Source: Sphingomonas sp. (lineage in GTDB: Bacteria; Pseudomonadota; Alphaproteobacteria; Sphingomonadales; Sphingomonadaceae). From it: DNA of 64,000 bases. Location of the stretch: assembly GCF_024508665.1 (NCBI RefSeq), contig NZ_JANINP010000002.1, positions 36,598-100,597 on the forward strand, given 5' to 3'. Shown here piece by piece: positions 29,571 to 33,928 of this stretch. The position numbers and the translations under genes are program-made. The notes beneath the pieces are model-generated. The model saw only the letters and a program-made list of their open reading frames with translations, was not told where the DNA came from and did no database searches. Every line of letters starts with the position of its first letter. The first letter of the stretch is position 1.

Positions 29571-31133
29571 CTACCTGTTGCGATCGTTGCGCACCCCGTA
29601 GGTCAAGGTTTCCGTGCCGTTCGCGGGAACCCTGGTGGTCCAGAAAGACGCGCCGTCTTTCCTCCCCAGCCTGCTGCTCGATCGCACCATCTTCTCGTCA
29701 TCGTCGAGATAGATCTTCGCCTCATAGGTTACCGGCCAGGGCTGGTCGTTGGTGACGGTCAACGTGTACGCGGTGGTGCGGTCGTCCGGACGGTGGCGCG
29801 TCCCCACCACTTGCGTCGACACGCTTTGCGGCCGGCCCATGCGGAACTCGACGAGTTCGTCCACCGCCTTGTCGTCGATCGCCGATTCGCCGACCAGCAG
29901 CATCTGGCCCTCGACTTCGCTGAACACCGCCGCCTTGCCCGCCGGCATTGCCGCGCCGAGGCCATTGGCGACATTGTTCTTGCCGCGAAGCAACAACGTC
30001 GTCTCGGCACTCTCGCGTACGATATCGCTGACATAGACCGGCGCGAGCTTGACGCCGGGCTTGTTCATCAGCCCGACCTGTTTCTGCGATTGCGACGCGA
30101 CCGTGACGCGGGTCGGGAAACGATAGAGTTTGAGGTCGCCGAGCGCTTCGACCGTCGCCACCTTAGCCTCGGCCATCAACCCGGCGCGGTTCGCAGTAAC
30201 AACTAGGTCCATCGCCTCGGGTGCCGGCGGAGGAGGTGGCGGCGGCGGCGCGGGCATCGATGGCAATTGATACCCGTCATCCGCGTCTTCGAGATCATAT
30301 TCCGGCACTGGCCAGCATTGTAGCGGCAGGTAGCTCGCCGAGGCGAAATTGCGTGGACCGTAATTGCTGTTCGCGGTGCGGTTGATCTTACCGGCGACCA
30401 CTTGGGTATCGGCATCGACGAAGGTGGTGACATCGGTCGATGCCAGGGTGATCCACGCAAACAGATCGGCGCTTTGCCCATCCTTGCGCATCGCGATAAC
30501 ATAGTCTGCCTGCCAGTCGAACCCTCCCGATAGATAGGACAGGGTCAGCGTCACCTGGCGTTCGGCCTTCGCAGTCGTCTTTACAGACAACGTCGGCTTG
30601 GCCGACAAACCCTCGGGCACGCCGTCATAGACGATCGCCTCTGGCAGGCCCGAACATCTGAGGTCGCCATAGGCGCCGCCGAACTGAAGCACCGCGGCGC
30701 CGTCAGCGGACGAGCGCAACGTTGCCTGCAGCAACTGCGCCTTGCCCGTCGCCGGATTGGTGCGGCGAACCAGGACGCGACGGCCCAGCGCGCGGTCGAA
30801 CAGCGACCGCGGCGACAGCAGATTCGCGTCGAGATTCTTCTCTTCGACTCCATCGGGCAGTCCTGACACCAAAGCGCTTTCGGGCAGGATATTGCCCGCC
30901 ACGCCTTCGAACCGGATCACCGCCGGGCCGGCGGGAATGGTCACCGTGCGCGTCTCGGTGATCAGCGCGAAGCCTTGCGGGTAGGACCGATTGATCGCGC
31001 TATCCGCATCGCGATCGGGATCGCGATAGAGTGTCACCGAAACCTTGTCGGGGCCGGCGGACGTGACGATTGTCTGTGCGCGCGCCGGCATCGCGCCGGC
31101 CAGCACGAGCAGCAACAGCAAGGCGGCGCGCAT
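29571..31133 (-). CDS. DUF4139 domain exported protein
   Basis: Signal peptide; ALITETR, LSYLSGGFDWQADY, LGDLKLY, QSQKQV, GAAMPAG; poly-Pro linker. Confidence 0.85.
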   Translation of the reverse strand: MRAALLLLLVLAGAMPARAQTIVTSAGPDKVSVTLYRDPDRDADSAINRSYPQGFALITETRTVTIPAGPAVIRFEGVAGNILPESALVSGLPDGVEEKNLDANLLSPRSLFDRALGRRVLVRRTNPATGKAQLLQATLRSSADGAAVLQFGGAYGDLRCSGLPEAIVYDGVPEGLSAKPTLSVKTTAKAERQVTLTLSYLSGGFDWQADYVIAMRKDGQSADLFAWITLASTDVTTFVDADTQVVAGKINRTANSNYGPRNFASASYLPLQCWPVPEYDLEDADDGYQLPSMPAPPPPPPPPAPEAMDLVVTANRAGLMAEAKVATVEALGDLKLYRFPTRVTVASQSQKQVGLMNKPGVKLAPVYVSDIVRESAETTLLLRGKNNVANGLGAAMPAGKAAVFSEVEGQMLLVGESAIDDKAVDELVEFRMGRPQSVSTQVVGTRHRPDDRTTAYTLTVTNDQPWPVTYEAKIYLDDDEKMVRSSSRLGRKDGASFWTTRVPANGTETLTYGVRNDRNR

Positions 31134-31149
31134 CGCGCGGATCTCGCCG

Positions 31150-32616
31150 TCAGTACCGGGTATCGAACGCGACGGTCAGCACGGTCGATCCGTTGGCTGG
31201 CACCGTCACATGCCATAAGCGTTCGTCGAGCGAGCGCTGTTCGCCCTTGATCGATTCGCTCGAGACGCGGGTGTCGTGCCAATATGTGCGGTCGAGCCCG
31301 GCCTGGACCAGGTCGACGGTCACCGGTTCGGGCCGCGCGTTGGTCACCGTATAGCTCATCGTCGTGCGCCAATAGGTGACCTCGTCCTCGCGCTCGACCG
31401 TCGTCGGCTTGCCTCCGTCGATCGAAATGCGGAATTTCTCGGTCCGCTCCCATTCGCCACTGTTGATCTTCTCGCGCTTCTCGACCGCCGGCTTGACCTT
31501 GACGTCGAACGCCTCGCCGGTGCGGATCGCCAGCGTCGATCCCATCGGTGTGTGGTCGATGCGGTTCTCGCCGATGAATTGCGGCTGGCCCTTGGCGTCG
31601 CGGATGTAGACGCGGACCGTGCCCGCGGGCAGCGCATCGCCCAGCCCGCCATCCTTCGAGCTTGAGAAGCTCAGGACCGTGGCGGCACTGACCGGGTCGC
31701 TCGACGATCCGTACCAGTCATTGCGATATTGGTAGAGCTTCTTCGCCGGCACGCCGCCGACCGACAGGAAGCTGACCTGTTTCTGCTGATTGGGCGCGAT
31801 GGTGATGCGGTGCCCGACCGGATAGAGATAGAAATCGCCCAGTCGCACCCGCCTGGCGTTCTCTGTTCCCGGTAGCGTTCCCGGCGCCATGCCGGCATTG
31901 CCGCCGCGCCCCTGCCCGGGCGCGCCGGCGACCAGCACCGTATCGGCGTTGGTGAAAGCGACATTGTTGTCGTTGCGCAGCGTCACCCAGCCCTGGACGT
32001 CGATCATGCTCTTCGCTTCGTCGAACAAGGCGACATAATCGGCGTTCCAGCCAAGCCCGGTGGTCAGATAGCTGAGCGTCGCCGGCCGCGTGCCGCCTCC
32101 CGAAGCGTCGAGCGAGATCGACAAGGTCGGCCGCGCGCGCAGATTGGGCGGCAGCGAATCATAGACCACGCGGACCGGCAGGCCGTCGTCGCGCAGCACC
32201 TCGATATTATTGCCGATCTGGAGCACGACACCGCCATTGGTCGCCAGTACCTTGGCCCGCTCGCGCGTCTCGACACCCGTCGCCGGGTTGGTGCGGACGA
32301 GCGTGATGGTCTGGCCGACCGCTTTCTGGATCAGCGCGCTCGGCGACAGCAGATCATAATCGAAATTCTGCTCGACGATCGATGCGCCGTCGATCGACAG
32401 CCGCACCGTTTCGGGCCGGATACGATCGGAGACGTCGGGAAATTCCTGGCGATTGAGGCCGTTGGCCAAAGTCAGTCGGCGCGTATCCTGGATCAGCGCC
32501 TGGTTGTTGTTGTAGATCGTGACAGAGACATCGCCCTGCGCCGACGGCTGCGGCGCGGTCTGCGCCAGGGCGGCGCCTGGCGCCATCAACAGGACCGAAA
32601 CCGCCAGTGCGCGCAT
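31150..32616 (-). CDS. DUF4139 domain exported protein (paralog)
   Basis: Signal peptide; VSVTIYNNNQALIQDTR, NFDYDLL, LSYLTTGLGWNADY, LGDALPAGTVRVY. Confidence 0.88.
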   Translation of the reverse strand: MRALAVSVLLMAPGAALAQTAPQPSAQGDVSVTIYNNNQALIQDTRRLTLANGLNRQEFPDVSDRIRPETVRLSIDGASIVEQNFDYDLLSPSALIQKAVGQTITLVRTNPATGVETRERAKVLATNGGVVLQIGNNIEVLRDDGLPVRVVYDSLPPNLRARPTLSISLDASGGGTRPATLSYLTTGLGWNADYVALFDEAKSMIDVQGWVTLRNDNNVAFTNADTVLVAGAPGQGRGGNAGMAPGTLPGTENARRVRLGDFYLYPVGHRITIAPNQQKQVSFLSVGGVPAKKLYQYRNDWYGSSSDPVSAATVLSFSSSKDGGLGDALPAGTVRVYIRDAKGQPQFIGENRIDHTPMGSTLAIRTGEAFDVKVKPAVEKREKINSGEWERTEKFRISIDGGKPTTVEREDEVTYWRTTMSYTVTNARPEPVTVDLVQAGLDRTYWHDTRVSSESIKGEQRSLDERLWHVTVPANGSTVLTVAFDTRY

Positions 32617-32712
32617 CTTCTTCCCCCGTCTCGTTAAGCTGTCTTGTCTGCGACTAAGCTAGCGTCTTGGCGGGTGAACGGAAGCTGAAAGATGGTCTAA
32701 CCCGCAGCGCCA

Positions 32713-32853
32713 CATCCGTTTCGGTGCGATCCTCAATGGCTTGGACGAGAGCCGGGCGCCGGACTGCGTCTTTGGGGGCAAGCGGGCATTGATGAAGTGA
32801 CCCCCGGCCTTCGCGGCTGTAAGGTCACCGGGTCCCCGTGACCGAGTCGGATG
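32713..32853 (+). ncRNA. candidate structured RNA, unassigned (three-way junction)
   Basis: Nested helices CATCCG/CGGATG, TCGGT/ACCGA, GATCC/GGGTC, TCAATG/CATTGA, GCTTG/CAAGC, GACG/CGTC, CCGG/CCGG and GTGACC/GGTCAC. G-U pairs favour the plus strand. Expression unknown. Confidence 0.5.
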
Positions 32854-32956
32854 CGAGTTCGGCGAATAGCGTAGCCGGGCCCGTCGATGACGACTTCGCG
32901 AGACAGCAGCACCGGTCCTGCCGGCCGGCACGCCTCTTTATGAGAGGAATTCCCCC

Positions 32957-33832
32957 ATGCCTTTCATCACCACCGACGACGGCACCGAGATTTTCTACAA
33001 GGATTGGGGCGCGCGCGGCGCGCAGACGATCGTGTTCCATCACGGCTGGCCGCTCAGCGCCGACGATTGGGACAATCAGCTGCTGTTCTTCCGCGCCAAG
33101 GGCTTCCGCGTCGTCGCGCATGACCGCCGCGGCCATGGCCGTTCTGGGCAGCCCGACACCGGCAACGACATGGACACCTATGCGGCCGATGTGATCGCAC
33201 TCGCGCGGGCGCTGGATCTCAAGGACGCGATCCATGTCGGTCATTCGACCGGAGGCGGCGAGGTTGCCCGCTATGTCGCGCGCGCCGAGCCCGGCCGCGT
33301 ATCGAAGGCAGTACTCATTTCCGCCATCCCGCCGGTGATGGTGAAGAGTGACACGAACCCCGGCGGGACGCCGATCGAGGTGTTCGACGGCTTCCGCACC
33401 GCGCTCATGGCGAACCGGTCGCAATTCTACCTCGATGTCGCCTCGGGCCCGTTCTACAATTTCAACAAACCGGGCGTGGAACCTATCCAGGGCTTGATCG
33501 ACAATTGGTGGCGCCAGGGAATGATGGGTGGCGCCAATGCGGGATATGATTGCATCAAGGTCTTCTCGGAAACCGACCTCACCGAGGACCTGAAGCAGAT
33601 CGACGTGCCGGTGCTGGTCATTCACAGCGAGGACGATCAGGTCGTGCCCTATGCCGACGCCGGCCCGCTGGCCGTGAAGCTGCTCAGAAACGGCACGCTC
33701 AAGACCTATCAAGGCCTGCCGCACGGCTGCATGACGACGCACCCAGACCTGATCAATGCGGATATCCTCGCCTTTATCGGCAAAGAGGCAATTTCCCCGC
33801 AGGCCGAGAACGCCGAACCCGCTCTGGCATGA
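32957..33832 (+). CDS. non-heme chloroperoxidase-like alpha/beta hydrolase
   Basis: FYKDWG, FHHGWPLSADDW, HDRRGHGRS, GHSTGGGEV, DDQVVP, PHG. Confidence 0.93.
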   Translation: MPFITTDDGTEIFYKDWGARGAQTIVFHHGWPLSADDWDNQLLFFRAKGFRVVAHDRRGHGRSGQPDTGNDMDTYAADVIALARALDLKDAIHVGHSTGGGEVARYVARAEPGRVSKAVLISAIPPVMVKSDTNPGGTPIEVFDGFRTALMANRSQFYLDVASGPFYNFNKPGVEPIQGLIDNWWRQGMMGGANAGYDCIKVFSETDLTEDLKQIDVPVLVIHSEDDQVVPYADAGPLAVKLLRNGTLKTYQGLPHGCMTTHPDLINADILAFIGKEAISPQAENAEPALA

Positions 33833-33888
33833 CATGGCGAGGGGAGCCGGAACCATCGGCTCCCTTGGCCTTCTGGCCTCCGCAAAAC

Positions 33889-33924
33889 AAAACGCCCGGC
33901 GGATCGGATCCGGCCGGGCGTTTT
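33889..33924. terminator. bidirectional intrinsic terminator
   Basis: AAAACGCCCGGC...GCCGGGCGTTTT between convergent genes. Confidence 0.85.
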
Positions 33925-33928
33925 ATTC

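Follow-up and report, generated by a model that had tools for sequence, protein, structure and literature searches.

In a 64,000-nt stretch of Sphingomonas sp. DNA (contig NZ_JANINP010000002.1; the whole stretch is called the window below), the gene for an alpha/beta-hydrolase is preceded by a leader, at 32832-32956 on the plus strand, that is probably a member of a conserved cis-regulatory RNA motif and the functional element of the locus. It is best read as a new translational leader and possibly as a candidate orphan riboswitch. The earlier note on this DNA had instead placed a 141-nt highly structured RNA at 32713-32853, an interval that overlaps the leader only in its last ~22 nt. One of its proposals, a cis-regulatory leader of the haloperoxidase-like gene, stands as to kind, while the coordinates and the structure do not. 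The features of the locus are listed in Table 1.

Orthologues of the hydrolase gene in genomes G193, G188, G252 and G060 lie in different genomic places and share two upstream blocks, A and B, with the window. Weaker matches to block B led to loci at which both blocks precede a gene for a 430-aa epoxide hydrolase (Pfam EHN and Abhydrolase_1). A loose two-block pattern was run over all species genomes. Almost all of the 120 matches listed were chance occurrences in GC-rich actinobacteria, and among them only those in Sphingomonas mali and Alteraurantiacibacter aquimixticola were real. Over 400 genomes of the family the loose pattern gave one true additional match, and a tight block-B pattern run over metagenomes gave 60 soil and rhizosphere contigs. 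Sixty unique instances from BLAST and the patterns were aligned with MAFFT (alignment A1) and used as the basis of a covariance model, R1, which returned 78 matches on the collected loci, 63 of them distinct. R1 scored the window leader at 70.5 bits (E ~5e-11). When R1 was run on fresh samples, 5 of 151 Sphingomonas genomes and 3 of 151 genomes of the family carried the motif, with the window's own genome included in each count; one of the matches lay in a third genus. The motif is found in Sphingomonas, in two other genera of the family and in soil metagenomes, and the window's own genome carries one copy.

The motif always lies directly behind the same promoter and directly before a gene. 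That gene encodes a CPO-L-like hydrolase in ~23 cases and an epoxide hydrolase in ~30; the others encode a catalase-related protein (2), a small exported protein (2) or an NmrA-like protein (1). On the upstream side the motif is flanked by unrelated housekeeping genes (OmpA, thymidylate synthase, FGase, acyl-CoA dehydrogenase, arabinofuranosidase and others), and no regulator gene was found among them. At two loci (L201:1262-4336 and L224:10928-13442), tandem epoxide-hydrolase paralogues stand ~1.6 kb apart, each with its own promoter and leader.

The promoter was compared over 59 homologous loci anchored on a conserved TA. The sequence xTGACc was present at -22 to -18 in 39-45 of these loci, followed after a 17-nt spacer by TAnnnT at positions 0 to 5, and the T and A at the first two -10 positions were shared by 44 and 49 loci, respectively. 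The first conserved bases of the motif, GUC, lie at +12 to +14 from the -10 anchor, and this spacing is constant. A consensus scan called equivalent sites in L225 (CTGACA-17-TACAAT, 10 of 12 positions) and L177 (GTGACC-17-TATAGT, 9 of 12), in each case as the only promoter-like site in 400 nt, with approximately zero expected by chance. The shared xTGACc, 17-nt spacer and TAnnnT, conserved in position over the 59 loci, are those of the sigma-70 housekeeping promoter (TTGACA-17-TATAAT), from which the window's own site differs in matching at 7 of 12 positions only. This suggests that a sigma-70-type promoter drives the hydrolase gene and that the mRNA probably starts near 32832. With this predicted start, arm 2 of the fold in the earlier note (GTGACC/GGTCAC) corresponds to the -35 box together with sequence that overlaps the -10 box, and the conserved motif becomes the 5' leader of the mRNA. 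A sigma-54 or EcfG-type promoter in block B was rejected by eye, since the block lacks both a conserved GG at -24 and the sequence GGAAC..CGTT.

What most firmly indicates that the element acts as an RNA occluding the ribosome-binding site is a helix that we call P4. In the epoxide-hydrolase class the strand immediately after hairpin P3, CUCUUGCCGUCCG, pairs with CGGACGAGGAG over a variable insert of 30-40 nt. The latter strand includes the Shine-Dalgarno sequence, 7 nt 5' of the AUG. The P4 region is outside the search pattern. In the alignment, 94.8% of the P4 cells were paired, compared to 42-59% when the strands were slid. Two-sided changes were observed in five of the ten pairs, and 11 cells were compensated compared to 3.6 after shuffling (0 of 500 shuffles). 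The variants GUCCG/CGGAC, GUUCG/CGAAC, GUCUG/CAGGC and GCCUG/CAGGC occur in the leaders of different gene types, and many of the P4 pairs are U-G pairs, which can form on the plus strand only. RNAalifold, unaided, predicted P3 as well as the core of P4. An expression platform of the kind looked for in a riboswitch is thus present in the epoxide-hydrolase class, in the form of P4.

Upstream of P4, the leader has a first domain (P1, Ha and a variable Hb region), a conserved single-stranded linker and the hairpin P3. The consensus of P1 is GUCU.CG.GA / UY.CGAGAC, with a short closing helix Hc (CCGA / UCGG). Inside it lie Ha (GUCGAA / UUCGAC) and Hb (GGAC / GYCC, with a frequent A-C mismatch), and the linker AGCAGCR and P3 (CCGRYC-CUGMC-GGYCGG) follow. 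Of the instances that BLAST or the model recovered, independently of the search pattern, nearly all have the linker in the form (A/G)(G/A)CAGC(A/G); the exceptions are G252 (CCCGCA) and L240, L241 and L243 (CGGC). The fourth pair of P3 is GC in 47 instances, GU in 6, AU in 4 and other in 6, and the fifth is CG in 37 and UG in 26, a U-G wobble being possible on the plus-strand RNA only. In alignment A1, 84.0% of cells were paired compared to 21-49% when slid, with a covariation score of 0.132 against 0.124 for shuffled columns (15 of 500). The corresponding values in the model-fitted alignment A3 were 87.2% against 14-50% and 0.133 against 0.114 (0 of 500), with two-sided changes in 12 pairs compared to 7.0 after shuffling. 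One-sided shifts to G-U were frequent (U-A to U-G, 11; A-U to G-U, 15; G-C to G-U, 11 and 19; C-G to U-G, 26). As these variants pair on the plus strand only, the variation is biased towards plus-strand RNA pairing. The pairing and the modest covariation are suggestive of the domain 1 fold and no proof of it, since the A3 values favour the model to which that alignment was fitted and the sequences share ancestry.

Two other structures were set aside. An early nine-sequence structure with GAGUCG/CGRCUY as helix 2 fits only part of the hydrolase class and was replaced, and a pseudoknot of the P3 loop with the linker or with the Hb loop, considered by eye, had no supporting covariation. At L225:8728-8754, Hb is a perfect 7-bp stem followed by UUUUU, which the scan calls terminator-like, and this copy may be a variant that acts by transcription attenuation. 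Most of the other copies have the A-C mismatch in Hb and a shorter U run.

The conserved blocks could also be DNA operators, at which an unlinked transcription factor would bind GTCGAA..TTCGAC and GCCGGCC-N5-GGCCGGC and repress a stress regulon. The blocks are inverted repeats, their sequence conservation is very strong even at positions that are unpaired in the RNA model, and the gene set resembles a stress regulon; with no regulator next to the motif, a distal one is possible. The distance between the two arms, however, is ~2-10 nt in Ha and more variable in Hb, which suits RNA loops and would not be tolerated by a dimeric DNA-binding protein. In addition, an asymmetric C-to-T change, present at 26 of 63 sites in a single arm of the GC-rich repeat, keeps a U-G pair in the plus-strand RNA only. 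P4 covaries across a variable insert of ~35 nt and includes the Shine-Dalgarno sequence, and the ~100 conserved nt go far beyond what one operator needs. We therefore regard operators as an improbable explanation of the blocks.

Several observations weigh against a regulatory RNA leader. P4 was found in the epoxide-hydrolase class and not in the window's own class, which has a 22-30 nt spacer to the AUG and short, heterogeneous platforms. The window has merely a 5-bp hairpin over the Shine-Dalgarno sequence, at a position homologous to that of P4, and control there is therefore less certain. Among five close relatives almost all changes in this hairpin fall in the loop, with L205 altering one stem base as well, and these five relatives gave no covariation in it. 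The Shine-Dalgarno region could also pair with the 5' end of the leader, to which it is complementary at 12-13 of 15 positions, and this pairing wins the single-sequence fold. Because of it, no 'ON' conformation could be singled out among the alternative states. We did not adopt this pairing as a conserved state, as it shows no compensation where P4 compensates. In the single-sequence fold of the window leader P1 and the hairpin over the Shine-Dalgarno sequence form, whereas Ha and the full P3 do not. The folding energy of this leader is ordinary (z 0.03; L215, z -1.17). RNAalifold on the raw MAFFT alignment returned P3 only. The domain 1 covariation is modest and partly inflated by the model-fitted alignment and by related sequences, and some of the proposed pairs, namely the fourth pair of P1 and the A-C position of Hb, are mostly mismatched. 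In the metagenome set the invariance of block B was imposed by the search pattern, which left P3 free at three degenerate positions only. Lastly, the transcription start and the leader are predictions, and the window's hexamers are weak and were not called by the promoter scan, so that the argument for a promoter there rests on positional conservation.

The proposed mechanism would be as follows. A horizontally acquired cassette would bring its own promoter, yielding an mRNA with a ~125-nt leader that folds and keeps the ribosome-binding site closed. A signal would then remodel the upstream domain (P1, Ha, Hb and P3) and open the ribosome-binding site. A small molecule tied to peroxide, epoxide or electrophile stress might provide this signal, as might a protein or temperature. 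The outcome would be a joint tuning of translation for a small set of detoxifying enzymes. A more specific version, that the leader and its ~60 relatives form a new riboswitch class in which P1/Ha/Hb/P3 binds a peroxide-, epoxide- or electrophile-stress molecule and thereby opens the helix occluding the Shine-Dalgarno sequence, is a tentative one to which we give roughly one chance in a handful or slightly better. Like the orphan riboswitch candidates in Rfam and in the surveys of the Breaker laboratory, the motif lies between promoter and start codon and has a multi-stem domain, invariant unpaired nucleotides, a helix occluding the Shine-Dalgarno sequence and a small set of functionally coherent genes, which stand in unrelated contexts and have no regulator beside them. 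It differs from them in that no Rfam model fits and no alternative pairing for ligand-free and ligand-bound states can be defined.

A real RNA leader that senses no ligand would serve as a constitutive stabilising or translation-damping 5' untranslated region, as an RNA thermometer, or as a dock for an RNA-binding protein or a small RNA. The Shine-Dalgarno sequence is paired in every fold that we built and no clear, mutually exclusive 'ON' structure was found. P4, rich in U-G pairs and with an internal mismatch, is thermometer-like. ROSE thermometers are likewise alpha-proteobacterial 5' untranslated regions of ~100 nt with several hairpins, the last of which pairs the Shine-Dalgarno sequence through a helix with wobbles and a mismatch. 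They stand before small heat-shock genes, in contrast to the haloperoxidase-type, epoxide-hydrolase, catalase-related and NmrA-like genes behind the leader motif, and the ROSE covariance models of Rfam gave no match in the window or in five other leader loci. The upstream domain of the leader is also far more conserved in sequence than is usual for thermometer hairpins. Its unpaired positions in particular (the AGCAGC linker and the P3 loop CUGMC) are highly conserved, which is more like a binding pocket than a melting hairpin. Nor are the genes heat-shock genes; a protein partner would be compatible with all of this. Overall, we consider a leader that senses no ligand unlikely, though still a serious contender.

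Rfam 15 (4227 models) gave no gathering-level match in the 64-kb window, and the earlier note, too, had recognised no tRNA, SRP, tmRNA, RNase P or common riboswitch signature. At E values up to 10, the region 32300-33300 gave only a 15-bit gntR-DTE match, which lies inside the 488-aa gene, and the five other leader loci gave only a 25.6-bit chance match to mir-207. Full-text literature searches found no paper describing the leader motif. In the parts of two surveys of non-coding RNA returned by term searches (PMC8632094, PMC11109978), epoxide hydrolase, chloroperoxidase and catalase are not mentioned, and the sole Sphingomonas entry there is the unrelated odc1 motif. The leader motif is apparently undescribed.

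The interval 32713-32853 is a chance fold across ~85 nt of spacer, the promoter and the start (~22 nt) of the hydrolase mRNA. The earlier note had described it as eight nested helices forming a three-way junction within a 340-nt intergenic region upstream of the haloperoxidase-like gene. The intergenic region is confirmed, and the complementary segments of all eight helices lie where they had been placed, with 41 of 41 pairs standard in the window. One terminal pair changes from C-G to G-C in G085, which would also fit a single structured RNA, be it a small RNA or a leader. The predicted stability of the plus strand, however, is that expected by chance (-60.3 kcal/mol compared to -57.5 +/- 4.5 for dinucleotide shuffles; z -0.63; 47 of 200 shuffles as stable; z -1.22 for the minus strand), and the minimum-energy fold retains the closing stems and arm 2 only, arm 1 being lost. 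Covariation was examined in a five-sequence alignment of the window and its four nearest homologues (83-86% identical). None was found, an outcome that the earlier note itself had named as counting against its proposal. In this alignment 81% of cells pair, a score that was reached in 252 of 500 shuffles of the columns. Variation affects 18 pairs, and in 12 of these it amounts to breakage only; six pairs are unique to the window, and three relatives are without 3 nt of the GACG strand. Over the 141 nt, the window's genome (G000) and G085 are 83% identical, with 23 substitutions and 1 indel between them. Identity reaches 92-93% in the flanking genes, in which 11-20% of third codon positions have changed, and the candidate thus evolves at roughly the pace of silent sites. 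Its first ~85 nt precede the conserved promoter and are unconserved beyond one clade. Together with the assignment of arm 2 to the -35/-10 region, these results make a single structured RNA over this interval very unlikely.

The spacer contains the 5' closing strands of that fold and the whole of its arm 1. It can be aligned only within the clade of G000, G310 and G085 and with two metagenome contigs, at ~83-86% identity, and hydrolase orthologues elsewhere have no upstream similarity to the window before ~32788. A coding gene or pseudogene in the intergenic region was rejected. Substitutions between G000 and G085 fall evenly over the three phases (17/17/14) and GC content is flat across them, compared to 99/15/8 and 32/8/7 in the flanking genes, where third positions dominate. 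These aperiodic changes show that nothing is coding there, and a 90-aa open reading frame in the region has no Pfam match.

The origin of the spacer and the leader at this locus was traced by comparison with genome G170, in which the 488-aa gene is present (94.7% aa identity) and the hydrolase gene is absent from the locus. Positions 32640-32693 of the window are 89% identical to the same position in G170 (L037). Similarity ends after GAAAGAT at 32693 and returns at ~33880, at the terminator of the DUF4167 gene, and the slot in G170 holds an unrelated, lower-GC filler of ~470 nt (L037:1535-2003). It follows that 32694-33879 is a lineage-specific cassette, and that 32617-32693 belongs to the 488-aa gene. 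The insertion separates the DUF4167 gene from the 488-aa gene and was seen only in G000, G085 and G310. In most congeners with a readable flank, the DUF4167 gene (often with prmC) adjoins the 488-aa gene on its upstream side with no hydrolase gene there, and the 520-aa paralogue is usually on the other side of the 488-aa gene. The gap between the DUF4167 terminator and the 488-aa gene promoter forms a replaceable slot, holding either the hydrolase cassette (G000, G085, G310) or the G170 segment. Comparison by eye showed no target-site duplication at the cassette junctions.

This insertion boundary bears on a further proposal of the earlier note, which derives the interval from a mobile element, as a non-coding remnant such as an IS110-type insertion sequence (IS) end; a miniature inverted-repeat transposable element (MITE) or a repetitive extragenic palindrome (REP) would be of the same kind. 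Like such elements, the candidate is GC-rich, rich in inverted repeats and intergenic, and it borders the 1.19-kb insertion. Unlike them, it belongs to no repeat family and its inverted repeats are unconserved. It has one copy in its own 4.64-Mb genome. A search of 24 congeners with the whole intergenic region gave nothing, and among 400 sampled genomes of the genus full-length matches were found only in G085 and G310 (85-86% identity), with two metagenome contigs equally close. Its nearest gene neighbours, those for the hydrolase, the DUF4167 protein and two exported proteins (488 and 520 aa), include no transposase gene. No target-site duplication was seen, and the unit of promoter, leader and gene occurs in many unrelated contexts without terminal repeats. 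A mobile-element remnant is in our view the least probable of all the explanations considered, and extremely so.

The hydrolase itself matches Pfam Abhydrolase_1 at 7.8e-25. It is a close homologue of chloroperoxidase L (PDB 1a88, E 7.9e-142) and of related esterases and perhydrolases, and 1zoi (an esterase) and 4dgq (a non-heme chloroperoxidase) matched at ~1e-120. In G085, the orthologue (L003:310-1171) matches in two frames, residues 1-33 and then 38-291, indicating a frameshift near codons 34-37 that is either a pseudogene mutation or an assembly error; the leader upstream of it is intact. The G085 sequence is identical to a contig of Sphingomonas mali NBRC 15500 (L068). Two GC-rich hairpins lie 3' of the hydrolase stop codon, at 33841-33866 and 33893-33925. 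The hairpin GGGAGCCG..CGGCUCCC is part of the cassette, and GCCCGGCGG..CCGGCCGGGCG with its T-run, which G170 has as well, is probably the terminator of the convergent DUF4167 gene. On the other side, the tandem paralogues of 520 and 488 aa (29571-32616, minus strand) are ~36% identical over their first ~240 residues. Neither protein has a Pfam or NCBIfam family, and homologues of their genes, usually paired, are present in 64 of 121 sampled Sphingomonas genomes.

Table 1. Coordinates of the features at the hydrolase locus, in window positions.
Feature	Position	Strand	Description
Leader motif	32832-32956	plus	~125 nt, promoter to start codon
Block A, GUCCCCGYGACCGAGUCGG	32832-32851	plus	common upstream of hydrolase orthologues
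Block B, CGCGAGACAGCAGCACCGGYCCUGCCGGCCGG	32897-32928	plus	common upstream of hydrolase orthologues
-35 box, GTGACC	32797-32802	plus	5' strand of arm 2 in the earlier note; 4 of 6 consensus positions
-10 box, TAAGGT	32820-32825	plus	17 nt past the -35 box; overlapped by GGTCAC of arm 2; 3 of 6 positions of TATAAT
Domain 1	32832-32904	plus	P1, Ha and variable Hb region
P1 closing stem	GUC..CGUGA 32832-32841 / UCGCG.GAC 32896-32904	plus	as in the window
Ha hairpin	GUCGGA 32846-51 / UUCGGC 32858-63	plus	inside P1
Linker, AGCAGCA	32905-32911	plus	single-stranded, conserved
P3 hairpin, CCGGUC-CUGCC-GGCCGG	32912-32928	plus	independent RNAalifold prediction
Hairpin CCUCU-UUAUG-AGAGG	32933-32947	plus	pairs with Shine-Dalgarno GAGAGGAA, 32942-32949; present in single-sequence folds
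Alpha/beta-hydrolase gene	32957-33832	plus	291 aa; cofactor-free haloperoxidase / perhydrolase-esterase type
Intergenic region	32617-32956		340 nt; between the 488-aa gene (minus) and the alpha/beta-hydrolase gene (plus)
Cassette	32694-33879	plus	1.19 kb, lineage-specific; spacer, promoter, leader, hydrolase gene, terminator-like hairpin
Spacer at 5' edge of cassette	32694-32796	none	~100 nt, unconserved
Upstream (promoter/5' untranslated) region of 488-aa gene	32617-32693	minus	ancestral, outside the hydrolase cassette
488-aa exported protein gene	31150-32616	minus	divergent from the hydrolase gene

Recognising the spacer and the promoter keeps a chance fold out of the record. What takes its place is an RNA motif that is compact and clearly bounded, has its own promoter and ~60 natural variants, and is tied to enzymes that destroy epoxides or peroxides or make peracids. 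To our knowledge, few RNA-level sensors are tied to oxidative or electrophile stress; proteins normally do this sensing. If the leader should prove not to have a ligand, it would be a clean case of a shared translational leader that, as a module with its promoter, moves between unrelated genes. A ligand, if there is one, would give a lead to the natural substrates of the bacterial 'non-heme haloperoxidases' and of the microsomal-type epoxide hydrolases. Were the riboswitch reading true, one RNA sensor would turn on haloperoxidase/perhydrolases, epoxide hydrolases, catalase-related proteins and NmrA-like proteins in soil Sphingomonadaceae.

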